DNA of 32,000 nucleotides from Corynebacterium glutamicum ATCC 13032. GTDB taxonomy: Bacteria; Actinomycetota; Actinomycetes; Mycobacteriales; Mycobacteriaceae. Each line of letters starts with the position of its first letter. The first letter of the stretch is position 1. A model generated the notes under the pieces. It was not told the origin of the DNA, made no database searches, and saw nothing but the letters and a program-made list of their open reading frames with translations. Shown here piece by piece: positions 1,732-6,121 of the stretch. The DNA lies in contig NC_003450.3 of the NCBI RefSeq assembly GCF_000011325.1, positions 2,010,001 to 2,042,000 of the forward strand. The letters are read 5' to 3'. The translations under genes and the position numbers were made by a program.

Positions 1732-1874
1732 TATAGGTATTCGCACTTAAGAAACATCTCTCATGGAAAGAAGCTAGGCGGAAAGGGCGTTAAGTACTTG
1801 CCATTTAATCCTCAGCATCACTCGGATCAGTCGGAGATGTCGATGAAAATGCACCAGGAGCCGTGGAGAGCAGC

Positions 1875-3359
1875 ATGGTAGAAAACAACGTAGCAAAAAA
1901 GACGGTCGCTAAAAAGACCGCACGCAAGACCGCACGCAAAGCAGCCCCGCGCGTGGCAACCCCATTGGGAGTCGCATCTGAGTCTCCCATTTCGGCCACC
2001 CCTGCGCGCAGCATCGATGGAACCTCAACCCCTGTTGAAGCTGCTGACACCATAGAGACCACCGCCCCTGCAGCGAAGGCTCCTGCGGCCAAGGCTCCCG
2101 CTAAAAAGGTTGCCAAGAAGACAGCTCGCAAGGCACCTGCGAAAAAGACTGTCGCCAAGAAAGCCACAACCGCCAAGGCTGCACCTGCAACTGCCAAGGA
2201 CGAAAACGCACCTGTTGATGACGACGAGGAGAACCTCGCTCAGGATGAACAGGACTTCGACGGCGATGACTTCGTAGACGGCATCGAAGACGAAGAAGAT
2301 GAAGACGGCGTCGAAGCCCTCGGTGAAGAAAGCGAAGACGACGAAGAGGACGGCTCATCCGTTTGGGATGAAGACGAATCCGCAACCCTGCGTCAGGCAC
2401 GTAAAGATGCCGAGCTCACCGCTTCCGCCGACTCTGTTCGCGCTTACCTGAAGCAAATCGGTAAAGTTGCCCTGCTGAACGCTGAACAGGAAGTCTCCCT
2501 GGCAAAGCGCATCGAAGCAGGCCTTTACGCCACCCACCGCATGGAGGAAATGGAAGAAGCTTTCGCAGCCGGTGACAAGGACGCGAAACTCACCCCAGCC
2601 GTCAAGCGTGACCTCCGCGCCATCGCTCGTGACGGCCGCAAGGCGAAAAACCACCTCCTGGAAGCCAACCTTCGTCTGGTTGTCTCCCTGGCAAAGCGCT
2701 ACACCGGCCGTGGCATGGCATTCCTGGACCTCATCCAGGAAGGCAACCTCGGTCTGATTCGTGCCGTAGAGAAGTTCGACTACTCCAAGGGCTACAAGTT
2801 CTCCACCTACGCAACCTGGTGGATCCGTCAGGCAATCACCCGCGCCATGGCCGACCAAGCACGAACCATCCGTATCCCAGTCCACATGGTTGAAGTGATC
2901 AACAAACTTGGTCGCATCCAACGTGAACTCCTTCAGGAACTCGGCCGCGAACCAACCCCACAGGAACTGTCCAAAGAAATGGACATCTCCGAGGAAAAGG
3001 TACTGGAAATCCAGCAGTACGCCCGCGAACCAATCTCCCTGGACCAAACCATCGGCGACGAAGGCGACAGCCAGCTCGGCGACTTCATCGAAGACTCCGA
3101 AGCCGTCGTCGCAGTCGACGCCGTCTCATTCACCCTGCTGCAAGACCAGCTACAGGACGTCCTAGAGACCCTCTCCGAACGTGAAGCCGGCGTGGTTAAA
3201 CTCCGCTTCGGACTCACCGACGGAATGCCACGCACTTTAGACGAAATCGGCCAAGTTTACGGTGTCACCCGTGAGCGCATCCGCCAGATTGAGTCCAAGA
3301 CCATGTCTAAGCTGCGCCACCCATCACGCTCCCAGGTCCTTCGCGACTACCTGGACTAA
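1875..3359 (+). CDS. sigA: Primary (group 1) RNA polymerase sigma factor
   Basis: All conserved sigma-70 regions are readable:
- region 1.2: [21 protein letters not shown]
- region 2: [58 protein letters not shown]
- region 3: [15 protein letters not shown]
- region 4.2: [29 protein letters not shown]
ATG 1875 is preferred because GGAGAG at 1865-1870 can act as SD. The track start GTG 1863 is the alternative (+4 codons). Confidence 0.95.
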
Positions 3360-3379
3360 AACCCCAGTCGGGCTCAAGA

Positions 3380-3430
3380 CCGGGCCGCCACTGTTTTCCT
3401 CTGCGGGGAACGGTGGTGGCCCGGTTTTTC
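3380..3430 (+). terminator. Rho-independent terminator of sigA
   Basis: 14-bp GC-rich stem ccgggccgccactg / cggtggtggcccgg (two G-U pairs) at 3380-3393 and 3411-3424, followed by TTTTT at 3425-3429. It starts 21 nt after the sigA stop. Confidence 0.85.
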
Positions 3431-3440
3431 TGTTGCTTTG

Positions 3441-3465
3441 GTTCGGCTGGTCACAGTTCGGCTGG
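3441..3465. repeat. Direct repeat gttcggctgg x2, 15-bp period
   Basis: gttcggctgg occurs at 3441-3450 and 3456-3465. This is the first periodic element after the sigA terminator. Confidence 0.6.
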
Positions 3466-3479
3466 GGTGTTTTAAGTTT

Positions 3480-3605
3480 GATTTCACATTGCCGATTTCT
3501 AAACGCCGAGTTCTCGGATTCGAGACCTTACCTGCAATTTCACGGTTACAATTTCTCGTTAGCACTTTCGCGTACTCAATTTCTTATGTTCAATTTCGGT
3601 CGGAA
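3480..3605. repeat. Array A: nine consecutive 14-bp phased units, core (G/A)A(T/G/C)TTC (CAATTTC in units 5, 6, 8, 9)
   Basis: Units start at 3480 gatttcacattgcc, 3494 gatttctaaacgcc, 3508 gagttctcggattc, 3522 gagaccttacctgc, 3536 aatttcacggttac, 3550 aatttctcgttagc, 3564 actttcgcgtactc, 3578 aatttcttatgttc and 3592 aatttcggtcggaa. Spacing is exactly 14 bp throughout. Confidence 0.8.
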
Positions 3606-3622
3606 AAGTGCCATTTTCCGAC
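3599..3622. other. Hairpin at the array A / array A' junction (9-bp stem, 6-nt loop)
   Basis: gtcggaaaa (3599-3607) and ttttccgac (3614-3622) are perfectly complementary. The loop is gtgcca. Confidence 0.7.
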
Positions 3623-3625
3623 ATC

Positions 3626-3681
3626 GCCTTGAGAAATTGAATACAAGAAATTGAGCGCAAGGTATCGAACTTGAGAAATTG
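3626..3681. repeat. Array A': inverted copies of the array A unit (GAAATTG) in the same 14-bp phase
   Basis: GAAATTG occurs at 3633, 3647 and 3675; slot 3661 is degenerate (ggtatcg). cttgagaaattga is repeated at 3628 and 3670. GAAATTG is the exact reverse complement of CAATTTC. Confidence 0.7.
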
Positions 3682-3731
3682 AGCTTTAGCACTCACTCCC
3701 CTGTTTGATGAAGTCAGCAAAGCCAAAAGAC

Positions 3732-3787
3732 GACTTCACATCTCCGACTTCTTAACAGCGACTTCTCGTGGCTGACTTCGCTACCTA
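3732..3787. repeat. Array B: four 14-bp phased units with core GACTTC
   Basis: Units are 3732 gacttcacatctcc, 3746 gacttcttaacagc, 3760 gacttctcgtggct and 3774 gacttcgctaccta. The first three match array A units 1-3 at 11/14, 10/14 and 8/14 positions by my hand alignment. Confidence 0.8.
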
Positions 3788-3805
3788 AACCTGAGTTTCC
3801 TTAGC

Positions 3806-3870
3806 GAAGTCGTGTGATGAGAAGTCGTGTGATGAGAAGTTGGGTATGAGAAGTCAGCACACGTGAAGTC
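3806..3870. repeat. Array B': five 14-15-bp phased units with core GAAGTC (reverse complement of GACTTC), including a perfect 15-bp tandem duplication
   Basis: gaagtcgtgtgatga occurs at 3806 and again at 3821 (identical), then gaagttgggtatga at 3836, gaagtcagcacacgt at 3850 and gaagtc at 3865. An isolated GAAGTCAGCA at 3710-3719 repeats the one at 3850-3859. Confidence 0.8.
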
Positions 3871-3995
3871 GCCTTTTCTCCCCGGCACGCTCGGAGTAGC
3901 GTGAAAGGTGGAATGGAGCGAGGTGGAACGGCGCATCCCTTGGACTTTTCCCTCACTCATCTGGAGGCGCCGATGTGGAAAGGAGAAGGCTAGCC

Positions 3996-4100
3996 ATGTT
4001 TATCAACGTCATGCCGGAACCAGGCCTTGGTGGACTTATCCAGCGATTCATGCAGTGGATTAGTTGCATGAGTTTCGGCGAGTGCATGGTCATCCAGTAG
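3996..4100 (+). CDS. Speculative small ORF, 34 aa (MFINVMPEPGLGGLIQRFMQWISCMSFGECMVIQ)
   Basis: ATG at 3996 is preceded by aaAGGAGAAGG (3979-3989). TAG at 4098-4100 is followed within 5 nt by a strong terminator. It is too short for the ORF track and I recognise no homology. Confidence 0.3.
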   Translation: MFINVMPEPGLGGLIQRFMQWISCMSFGECMVIQ

Positions 4101-4104
4101 TTAG

Positions 4105-4150
4105 AAAAGGCGCTCACCTCCAAAGCTTTGGAGGTGAGCGCTTTCTTGTT
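4105..4150. terminator. Bidirectional rho-independent terminator (near-perfect palindrome) between the small ORF and the convergent membrane-protein gene
   Basis: gcgctcacctccaaagctttggaggtgagcgc (4110-4141) is a perfect 32-nt palindrome. It is flanked by AAAA on the left and TTTCTTGTT on the right. Confidence 0.85.
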
Positions 4151-4158
4151 CGACTCGG

Positions 4159-5496
4159 CTAGTTGCCTTGAGTGTATTTGTCGGAGGCTTTGTCTAGTGG
4201 AGTTGTGCCAGGAATCTGTGGATATGCAGCTGGGGTTGGGAGTTGTTTAGGTACGTAGGGATCTTGGAGTCCTTTTTTGCCGTAGGCGATGTAGCGGTGC
4301 ATCGATTCGAATGGGCCTCGTTTGCCAGCTAGTTCGAGACCGTATGCTCCGATGAGGGTGAGAAGCCATACGCAGGTGGCTACGCCGGCTTCGGCAAGTA
4401 TTCCTCCACCTTGGCCGAGTCCTAAGGTGTAGGTTTGCGTGAGGATCAGGAACAGGATGGATTGTCCGACGTAACCGCTCATGGATCGGGCACCGAGGGC
4501 TGCGATCATTTTGATGGGAAGTGGGAGGTGCCCATTTCCTTTATTGATTTTTCTTTGTAGTGGCTGGACGAGCAGTGCCACTGCTGCAACGATGCCTGGT
4601 CCTGTCAAAGAGCCAACAGCTTGATTGAGACCGCTAAAGACCGTGGCTGTCTGTGCAGAAAATACTCCAATTTCGGCTAGTCCCCAGGGGACGCCAACCA
4701 GGACTGCGATTGCGATAAAGATCCACGTTGCAATCCATAGGGGTTTTCTAAATTCATCGACCCGAGAGAGGACTCGGTGGCGTGCTGCGATGTAGCCAAC
4801 AATCATCACTGGCATGAGCATGAGGATTTCCACAGGAACTGATCCGATTTGAATTGGAACAGAGAGCAGACCCATGCCTAGGTATTCCAGGTAGGAATCA
4901 AAGGTCAGGTCAAGGCTAGCCATGGTATCAGTGGACACACCGAAGTACAGAGGTAGAACAACTCCGAGTGTGATGCCAACGATGACATAGATTGCTGACA
5001 TGGAACCTGCGATCCACCACAGTGTTTTGTCTTTGAGGGTCATGAGCATGGCAAAAATCATGCCTGCGACACCGTAGAAGAACATGATGTCACCCCAGAA
5101 GAGAAACACCATGTGGATAACGCCGAAGAGTGCGAGAAATCCGTATCGCCGAAGCAGCACTCCCCTGGCTGCTGTGTCGGGGTATTGACGTCGCCAGAGG
5201 CTGTACACGATCATTCCGACGCCATATCCTAGAAGCGTGGAGAACATCGGTAGGCCTCGGACATGGATGAACATGGCGGAAAAGACAGCGTAGATCTTTT
5301 CAAAGATGGAGTCATGAACAATGCCACCAAGTGAGGCCGCTGTGGATCCCGCAGGAGCAGCAATCCATGCTGTGGAAACGTTGGCCAGCGCAATGCCGAG
5401 CAGTGCGATACCTCGGGCAATATCTGGTGAGAGGATTCTGGTTTTCTGTGCAGTGCGCACGGCTTTGGTGTGTGTCGTTGGCGCTGAGTCAGACAT
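4159..5496 (-). CDS. Polytopic membrane protein, YeiB/DUF418-like, 445 aa
   Basis: Track ORF 4159..5670 trimmed to the ATG at 5496 (MSDSAPTTH...), which is preceded by AAGGAA; the longer form would overlap the upstream gene. Family-like motifs are read by eye: SPDIARGIALLGIALANV, RGLPMFSTLLGYGVG and LLRRYGFLALFGVIHMVFLFWGDIMFFYG. It has many TM segments. Confidence 0.75.
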   Translation of the reverse strand: MSDSAPTTHTKAVRTAQKTRILSPDIARGIALLGIALANVSTAWIAAPAGSTAASLGGIVHDSIFEKIYAVFSAMFIHVRGLPMFSTLLGYGVGMIVYSLWRRQYPDTAARGVLLRRYGFLALFGVIHMVFLFWGDIMFFYGVAGMIFAMLMTLKDKTLWWIAGSMSAIYVIVGITLGVVLPLYFGVSTDTMASLDLTFDSYLEYLGMGLLSVPIQIGSVPVEILMLMPVMIVGYIAARHRVLSRVDEFRKPLWIATWIFIAIAVLVGVPWGLAEIGVFSAQTATVFSGLNQAVGSLTGPGIVAAVALLVQPLQRKINKGNGHLPLPIKMIAALGARSMSGYVGQSILFLILTQTYTLGLGQGGGILAEAGVATCVWLLTLIGAYGLELAGKRGPFESMHRYIAYGKKGLQDPYVPKQLPTPAAYPQIPGTTPLDKASDKYTQGN

Positions 5497-5581
5497 ACTT
5501 TCCTTAATACAAACGCTGGTTATCTCAAATGGAGAAAAGAAAACCCTATGACTTTTAGCTGTCACAGGGTTTCCAATCAAA

Positions 5582-6121
5582 TTAAGCGAAGAGCTCTTGA
5601 ATGCATTGTTCTTGAGCCGCGGGATCCGTGAGCGTTGCACACTCAGAAAGTCCAGAACTGCTGAAAACAACGAGTATCAATATGACGCCAATCGCAAGGA
5701 GGATCAAGGTCAGAATCGACAGGATCAGACCGGTAATGGCAAAGCCCTTGCGCCTGTTTGCTGGCACGAAGTTCTTTGCTTTCACCAGCGCGATAATGGC
5801 CACGATGACGCCTGCGAGAGCGAGGAATGGAGAGAGGAAAGCACCAAATACAGTCACCAGAGTTACGATGGAGGCAATACCTAAGCCGAGTGCCCACGCT
5901 GCTGCGGTGTTCTTTGGTGCATTCAGAGGTGAGTTTTCAAAGCCTCCGGTATAGCCCGATCCGTAAGGATCTTGATATCCAGACTGCTGTGCTCCAGAAG
6001 AAGGCCCAAACGATTCCCCGTAAGGCGCTCCGTAGGGTTCCCCCTGGTTGGCGTTGAACGGATCATTCGAGTTTCCGCCATTGTTGTTGGGTTCACCATA
6101 GGGGTAATTCGGAGTGGTCAT
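5582..6121 (-). CDS. DUF4190-like membrane protein with a Pro/Gly/Tyr/Asn-rich disordered N-terminus, 179 aa
   Basis: The N-terminal ~70 aa are low-complexity (PNYPYGEPNNNGGNSNDPFNANQGEPYGAPYGESFGP...). Two long hydrophobic segments follow (AAWALGLGIASIVTLVTVFGAFLSPFLALAGVIVAIIALV; GFAITGLILSILTLILLAIGVILILVVF). GGAAAGG lies before the ATG at 6121. Confidence 0.8.
   Translation of the reverse strand: MTTPNYPYGEPNNNGGNSNDPFNANQGEPYGAPYGESFGPSSGAQQSGYQDPYGSGYTGGFENSPLNAPKNTAAAWALGLGIASIVTLVTVFGAFLSPFLALAGVIVAIIALVKAKNFVPANRRKGFAITGLILSILTLILLAIGVILILVVFSSSGLSECATLTDPAAQEQCIQELFA

Follow-up and report, generated by a model that had tools for sequence, protein, structure and literature searches.

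Convergent motif arrays beside sigA of Corynebacterium glutamicum: candidate binding sites with no known reader

What are the two blocks of short, opposed repeats that lie downstream of the essential gene sigA in Corynebacterium glutamicum ATCC 13032, and does a protein read them? The blocks, designated modules A and B, were analyzed within a 32,000-nt stretch of the chromosome (NC_003450.3, positions 2,010,001 to 2,042,000 of the forward strand; hereafter, the window), and all positions are counted from its first nucleotide. A preliminary description of module B had proposed either protein-binding sites or a structured RNA. C. glutamicum is of major importance in industry and as a model actinobacterium, and its regulatory network has been curated intensively. 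This 400-bp region beside sigA nevertheless carries about 20 selected motif copies, and neither a catalogued regulator nor an RNA family or mobile element explains them. Overall, the region looks like an undescribed, lineage-restricted set of oriented sites that selection has maintained and for which no reader is known.

The repeat unit of both modules consists of CRAYTTC followed by WCRW and three free bases, and it recurs every 14–15 bp in two arrays that face each other. When 21 units were read core-first, positions 1–7 (C-R-A-Y-T-T-C) carried a mean of 1.43 bits, positions 8–11 showed a weaker W-C-R-W preference, and positions 12–14 carried only 0.04–0.12 bits. This information profile demonstrates that the unit is an asymmetric motif of approximately 11 bp plus a 3-bp free linker. 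Each module is composed of a forward array, a short center, and a reverse array, with every motif directed to the center (Table 1); module A contains 12–13 units, and module B contains 8–9 units at 14–15 bp. Module A has mainly CAATTTC and CGATTTC cores, and the cores of module B are CGACTTC, CAACTTC, and TGACTTC. The reverse units of module B are spaced 15/15/14/15 bp in the window, and four reverse units are present in the other strains and in Corynebacterium suranareeae.

The repeats reported in the preliminary description were verified at every position: GACTTC at 3732, 3746, 3760, and 3774 in an exact 14-bp phase, and GAAGTC at 3710, 3806, 3821, 3850, and 3865 with GAAGTT at 3836 in a 14–15-bp phase. 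The perfect 15-bp tandem duplication (GAAGTCGTGTGATGA × 2) was recovered by a repeat search and by TRF, and the occurrence of GAAGTCAGCA at 3710 and 3850, its inverse GCTGACTTC at 3771, and the pairing of gcgacttc at 3758 with gaagtcgc at 3865 were likewise correct. The clustering is far from random. The two-unit pattern CRAYTTC-N7-CRAYTTC (at most one mismatch) matched 11 times in the window, all within 3479–3856, where shuffled sequences would give 0.24 matches, and CRAYTTCWCRW matched nine times against 0.67 expected, with eight of the nine in the arrays. Nine of the 26 window copies of GACTTC/GAAGTC are packed into 160 bp. No further array copy was detected within the window by these two-unit and 11-mer scans.

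To follow the element among relatives, their sigA-downstream regions were retrieved via their SigA proteins. Both modules are present and almost invariant in all C. glutamicum assemblies that span the locus, and both occur at the same locus in C. suranareeae (L001). The two species are well diverged: four-fold degenerate sites of four flanking genes are 38–65% identical (52% pooled). Core columns were set from C. glutamicum alone on an unsupervised MAFFT alignment with C. suranareeae. In module B, 52 of 56 core columns were identical (93%) versus 28 of 70 other columns (40%; Fisher p = 2e-10), and the spacers were conserved no better than neutral sites. The geometry was also retained, with spacings of 14/14/15, 33, and 15/14/15 bp in C. 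suranareeae and 14/14/14, 33, and 15/14/15 bp in C. glutamicum, and the 26-bp center kept its length while most of its sequence changed. Purifying selection therefore acts on the module B cores and their geometry but not on the spacers. Conserved cores with variable spacers is the outcome that the preliminary description had assigned to protein sites. The split between AATTTC (module A) and GACTTC (module B) cores, which it had noted, is maintained in both species, and two specificities would agree with this.

Recognition of each unit by its sequence is indicated because about 20 motif copies are frozen between species while the spacers drift, the spacing is conserved, and insertions and deletions involve whole units only. 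The most economical reader would be a DNA-binding protein acting on duplex DNA. We therefore favor, tentatively and at slightly less than an even chance, the reading that modules A and B are orphan arrays of oriented double-stranded DNA sites for a sequence-specific protein. Each site would comprise about 11 bp, CRAYTTC WCRW, with 3 unconstrained bp after it. A 14–15-bp step would rotate each successive site by approximately 120°, returning to the same helix face at every third site, so that an array of bound proteins would wind around the DNA. In module B, four rightward and four leftward sites (five in this strain) would converge on the center of fixed length, protein molecules may load cooperatively along each arm, and the mirror-matched spacing could allow both arms to be held in one higher-order complex. 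The distinct AATTTC and GACTTC cores suggest two related specificities or one tolerant reader. Such a complex might control the small downstream gene cg2094 locally, act as a titration sink, or mark a structural or segregation site; a ParB/SMC study by chromatin immunoprecipitation sequencing and Hi-C reported no feature at the locus. If a protein does read the arrays, both it and its function are missing from current models, and CRAYTTCWCRW would be of direct use for pull-downs and for predicting sites across the genome. Should nothing bind, this would be an unusual sequence-specific constraint without a known reader.

The repeats also have a strong potential to fold. Long hairpins are predicted from either strand, with z-scores of −6.3 and −6.2 for module B (−76 and −74 kcal/mol) and −4.7 for module A, and the hairpin of module B is retained in C. 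suranareeae (z = −5.4). In the allele with four plus four units, the fold contains four core–core helices, with internal loops formed by the spacers. It is conceivable that the region encodes a structured noncoding RNA or belongs to an extended 5′ leader of cg2094, in which a hairpin of about 150 nt presents the cores to an RNA-binding protein or RNase III. In addition to the predicted stability, a base helix that pairs in both species despite its changed sequence speaks for such an RNA, and an RNA sequencing (RNA-seq) study reports cg2094 as transcribed with no transcription start site found (PMC3890552). We nevertheless consider an RNA decidedly unlikely. An RNA helix requires neither an identical 7-mer in each segment nor a 7-mer frozen between species, and the arrays persist in C. 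suranareeae, which lacks cg2094, while cg2094 persists without arrays in another relative (L005).

Further evidence bears on this point. Folding energies are equal and G-U counts similar on the two strands, so no preferred transcribed strand is indicated. Partner spacers gave no sign of covariation: their identity was equaled or exceeded by alternative assignments in 5 of 24 cases for C. glutamicum module B, 12 of 24 for C. suranareeae module B, and 5 of 24 for module A, and the three free positions of the unit showed no complementarity between mirror partners. No Rfam family reached its gathering score, and only generic hairpin or miRNA-precursor matches appeared at E ≤ 10; a promoter scan of 3300–4300 returned no promoter-like site. 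The accessible portions of two dedicated C. glutamicum catalogues (PMC4046766; PMC3890552) list no transcription start site, small RNA, antisense RNA, or novel transcript over 1983500–1983999, which is absence of evidence only. Because the strands fold equally, partner spacers are not specially complementary, and the catalogues list nothing, the hairpin potential looks like a by-product of the shared motif. The structured RNA considered in the preliminary description gained no support, with mirror-partner spacers no more complementary than non-partners, and the comparative evidence would resolve its question in favor of binding-site arrays. A coding region was also considered and rejected: the period is not divisible by three, the unit length varies between 14 and 15 bp, and the open reading frames (ORFs) across the arrays are short.

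Variation among strains allows the origin of the repeats to be considered. The 15-bp duplication is restricted to the window and ATCC 13032-type assemblies (L160, L161, and L164) and is single-copy in ten others, in agreement with the suggestion that its copy number might be polymorphic. Assembly L163 (GCA_000742735.1; L163:3486–4283 versus window 3821–3850) carries an independent tandem duplication of the neighboring 14-bp unit, GAAGTTGAGTATGA. The number of units therefore changes by whole units, through two independent single-unit duplications, which preserves the array register, and the independence of the L163 event indicates that the module B reverse array is a recurrent slippage hotspot. 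At the apex of module A, small insertions and deletions occur among strains. One strain, L010 (GCA_013014865.1; versus window 3575–3655), has a 10-bp deletion and two substitutions there, by which the imperfect apex of the window allele is replaced by a perfect 33 + 33-nt palindrome with a 6-nt loop. This change looks like quasi-palindrome correction through template switching.

These events, together with the dispensability of the element in several close relatives, raise the possibility that the arrays have no function and are a by-product of replication slippage and template switching in a permissive spacer between convergent genes. This appears very unlikely. Slippage copies, and drift erodes, cores and spacers alike, and it cannot yield the difference of 93% versus 40% between them together with conserved spacings; homogenization among units would homogenize the spacers too, and the spacers are not homogenized.

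Among the relatives without the element, C. efficiens has a 65-bp spacer with no modules, C. crudilactis a 517-bp spacer with no arrays, and L006 a 68-bp spacer with no modules. L005, whose SigA is 85% identical, has at most a degenerate two-unit vestige and has kept cg2094. The preliminary description had held that functional relevance would fail if the block were missing from syntenic relatives; it is indeed missing from C. efficiens, C. crudilactis, and L006, yet the constraint is clear in the two species that carry it.

This lineage restriction would also fit a fold-back DNA element. It could be a non-autonomous mobile element or its relic, such as a miniature inverted-repeat transposable element (MITE) or foldback-like element with long terminal inverted repeats made of subrepeats, or else the remnant of a single-strand origin or cruciform site from a plasmid or phage that has been lost. 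On this reading, the repeated cores would be recognized by a transposase or Rep protein whose gene is no longer nearby. The terminal inverted-repeat, fold-back architecture is present, as 15-nt inverted ends close module B and both modules are long quasi-palindromes. The G + C content of the arrays is 40–47% compared with 54% for the window, the perfect palindrome in L010 is typical of palindrome dynamics, and many short-read contigs break within the arrays. Repetitive extragenic palindromic (REP) sequences, bacterial interspersed mosaic elements (BIMEs), MITEs, and foldback repeats likewise lie after terminators between convergent genes, form long imperfect palindromes from subrepeats, and break assemblies. 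Unlike these families, which have many dispersed copies, the arrays occupy one orthologous locus, with no other copy in the data scanned and no target-site duplication visible. They lie at the same locus in both species, and their cores have been selected long after neutral sites were nearly saturated, whereas a dead relic should decay.

Searches for copies among plasmids, phages, viral contigs, and metagenomes were also negative. BLASTN in 'distant' mode with 3470–3885 found no match in PLSDB (72,556 plasmids) or INPHARED (50,697 phage records). Exact three-unit patterns of both core types matched only perfect simple tandem repeats in viral contigs, and the apex of module B (GACTTCGCTAC N21 GAAGTCGT) had 13 metagenome matches, all in one unrelated gut-bacterial coding gene. 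In the genome collection, the matches listed (at least 120) for three successive CRAYTTC N7 units were unrelated 7-, 14-, or 35-bp tandem repeats of other phyla. The neighborhood contains no transposase, integrase, or Rep gene. A fold-back element is regarded as unlikely.

The binding-site arrays were next compared with known repeat systems. In the parC site of plasmid R1, which is bound by ParR, a central region is flanked by two groups of five 11-bp iterons, and the sites of ribbon-helix-helix (RHH) type include the omega heptads and the ParG boxes. The ParB site of pCXC100 consists of nine 9-bp repeats (PMC3074162). Like such plasmid centromeres, the modules have many short, regular repeats in direct and inverted orientation, arranged as two sets around a center and variable in number; repeat cores rather than flanks carry specificity, and cooperative coating would be expected by analogy. 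The compact, regular multi-repeat site of a parC/parS locus is thus present, but the adjacent operon for an NTPase and an adaptor is not, as the neighbors include no ParA/ParM and no RHH or helix-turn-helix adaptor. The modules do not qualify as a par locus because no partner genes are adjacent, and it is the logic of the site that resembles plasmid centromeres and iteron arrays. Also unlike plasmid centromeres, the arrays are chromosomal, limited to two species, and strictly convergent, and instead of contiguous 7–11-bp units they show a 14–15-bp period with a 3-bp free linker and a binding that is only predicted.

Iterons and other multi-site arrays (P1 incA/incC, the RctB 12-mers of Vibrio, and the ends of Tn7 and Mu) share the arrangement of oriented sites in opposed groups, in which orientation and spacing matter. 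Their iterons and transposase sites are 17–22 bp long, in contrast to the 14-bp units and 11-bp motif here, and the arrays are accompanied by no Rep or transposase gene, AT-rich unwinding element, or DnaA boxes.

Another comparison is offered by BldC, a small actinobacterial winged helix-turn-helix protein that forms head-to-tail filaments on variable numbers of direct repeats; its half-site is AATTXXXX(C) in contiguous 9-bp units, with GATTTCCCC, GAATTTCGC, and AATTCGGTC as examples, and BldC-like proteins occur in Corynebacterium (PMC5859096). The CAATTTC/GATTTC cores of module A, including AATTTCGGTC at 3592–3601, resemble these half-sites, though in resemblance only. Because the period of 14–15 bp and the module B GACTTC cores, which lack the required AATT, do not fit, BldC is a lead only for candidate readers. 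A BldC-type direct-repeat operator was rejected, since the arrays do not consist of contiguous 9-bp AATTXXXX(C) units. A clustered regularly interspaced short palindromic repeats (CRISPR) array was also rejected: the total unit is 14 bp rather than a 23–50-bp repeat with unique spacers of comparable length, the orientations are opposed instead of uniform, and the annotated neighborhood has no cas genes.

Several observations weigh against arrays of protein-binding sites. The 14-bp period is unlike the 10–11-bp face-of-helix phasing common in response regulators and unlike the contiguous 7–9-bp packing of RHH centromere proteins. No protein is known to bind the arrays, none is encoded nearby, and all neighboring genes also occur in relatives without arrays. 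The core-versus-spacer test relies on one diverged species, C. suranareeae. Conservation of module A is much weaker there: most of its reverse units are gone, and no fold-back potential is left (z = −0.4). Only two of the sampled species carry the element, so no core function is possible for it. In addition, the closing helix of module B pairs in both species although its sequences differ (AAAAG/CTTTT versus ACAGG/CCTGT); this is a single case and depends on shifting the register by one base, but it may point to some selection for fold-back pairing.

A more specific form of the binding-site reading, speculative and improbable as it stands, is an orphan chromosomal docking platform, of centromere-like or handcuffing type, for two small, related proteins of the C. 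glutamicum lineage that bind DNA. AATTTC would be read by one and GACTTC by the other, and both would be arranged on the convergent arms as a three-start spiral, with 120° per 14-bp step. If true, it would be a new bacterial protein–DNA array architecture with no linked partner gene.

Table 1. Coordinates of the repeat modules and associated features in the window.
Feature	Position	Strand	Details
sigA intrinsic terminator	3380–3424	+	Terminator scan; supplement of PMC3890552: cg2092 terminator 1983428–1983472, 'stem 1'
Module A forward array, nine 14-bp units	3479–3604	+	T/CGATTTC, CGAGTTC, degenerate CGAGACC, then CAATTTC/CACTTTC
Module A reverse array	3633–3681	−	GAAATTG 3633, 3647, 3675; degenerate unit 3661
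Lone reverse-type unit GAAGTCAGCA, upstream of module B	3710–3719	−	Repeat of copy at 3850
Outer inverted repeat closing module B, left arm AAAAGACGACTTCAC (15 nt)	3725–3739		Partner 3863–3877
Module B forward array, four units, 14-bp phase	3731–3786	+	Cores CGACTTC 3731, 3745, 3759; TGACTTC 3773
Module B center, 26 bp between innermost cores	3780–3805		33 bp from core start to core start
Module B reverse array, five units	3806–3871	−	GAAGTCG 3806, GAAGTCG 3821, GAAGTTG 3836, GAAGTCA 3850, GAAGTCG 3865
Perfect tandem duplication, 15-bp unit GAAGTCGTGTGATGA	3806–3835		Repeat search, TRF
Outer inverted repeat closing module B, right arm GTGAAGTCGCCTTTT (15 nt)	3863–3877		Partner 3725–3739
cg2094, 34-aa ORF MFINVMPEPGLGGLIQRFMQWISCMSFGECMVIQ, 120 bp downstream of module B	3996–4100	+	AGGAG site; no Pfam match
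Bidirectional terminator, common to cg2094 and the convergent DUF418 gene	4107–4144		Inverted repeat, terminator scan, PMC3890552

The relationship between the two modules was examined as well. The preliminary description had considered module B a diverged copy of module A, on the basis of a hand alignment of their first three units at 11/14, 10/14, and 8/14 positions with an offset of 252 bp (18 × 14). The alignment is correct and corresponds to a repeat match of 37 nt at 78%. The 252-bp phase is not kept, as the inter-block distance differs by +1, −10, and +5 bp in the strains L009, L010, and L162, respectively, and the offset is therefore coincidental. When units 1–3 of module B were compared with units 1–3 of module A, spacer identity was 12/21, with p = 0.005 at a fixed register, 0.017 when a choice among seven registers was allowed, and 0.03 against a null that retains the shared WCRW bias. 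The modules clearly share one unit family, whereas a diverged block copy is only weakly supported (p about 0.02–0.03); colinear descent of these three units is suggestive but not established. In three other strain assemblies, the lone unit at 3710 reads GAAATC. C. suranareeae has no equivalent of this unit, which probably lies outside the conserved architecture.

The ORF at 1863–3359 is 100% identical to C. glutamicum SigA, with ppgK upstream. An 800-bp spacer (3360–4158) separates sigA from a convergent DUF418 gene (4159–5670, minus strand) and contains, in order, the sigA terminator, module A (3479–3690), module B (3710–3877), a conserved segment of about 115 bp, a 34-codon ORF, and the bidirectional terminator. 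According to the RNA-seq study, the sigA transcript ends at the upstream terminator (PMC3890552), which places the arrays outside the sigA mRNA. The two terminators lie exactly as far apart as in the published coordinates of ATCC 13032 (1983428 and 1984158; PMC3890552). The window therefore holds the type-strain allele or its equal, and the small ORF is the annotated cg2094. Neighboring products are PpgK (a ROK kinase), SigA, DUF418, DUF4190, a DEAD/ResIII helicase, and DUF3039/3099 proteins. Literature searches returned nothing on cg2095 in Corynebacterium and nothing about these repeats for the sigA/sigB region, and the matches listed for cg2094 were unrelated (mostly human methylation-probe papers).

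The cg2094 gene is called in some assemblies and not in others. It is conserved in L005 mostly through synonymous changes, which indicates that it is probably a real small protein, and it is absent from C. suranareeae. An operator dedicated to cg2094 was weakened as a candidate, since arrays and gene occur separately, and regulation of cg2094 alone is accordingly unlikely to be their role. On its right side, module B adjoins a conserved hexamer, TAGCGT/TAACGT (3897–3902), which by our own reading of the sequence may serve cg2094 as a −10 element. The leader at 3880–3995 (about 115 nt) is also conserved and contains the direct repeats AGGTGGAATGGAGC and AGGTGGAACGGCGC (3906 and 3921). C. suranareeae lacks this leader along with the gene; its spacer has been remodeled around the arrays, with module B retained, and about 500 bp of unrelated sequence with short ORFs only (L001:6600–7020) lies between the sigA terminator and module A.

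At least 10 short-read or metagenome contigs carrying sigA end within or just before the arrays (L011–L013, L134, L137, L138, L165, L166, and L169–L171). The arrays systematically break de Bruijn-graph assemblies, which fits palindromic or repeated k-mers, and the breaks alone are no proof of multiple genomic copies. This is a practical caveat, and the number of units also differs between production strains.

Two minor features were observed in the flanks. The mechanical ORF of the DUF418 gene begins at a TTG and is 503 aa long. Public annotations of this gene are shorter, at 445 aa (468 aa in one record), and the upstream TTG start is probably spurious. Between the sigA terminator and module A, the 10-mer GTTCGGCTGG occurs exactly at 3441 and 3456, 15 bp apart, and this segment (3441–3465) also scores as a weak terminator-like hairpin.

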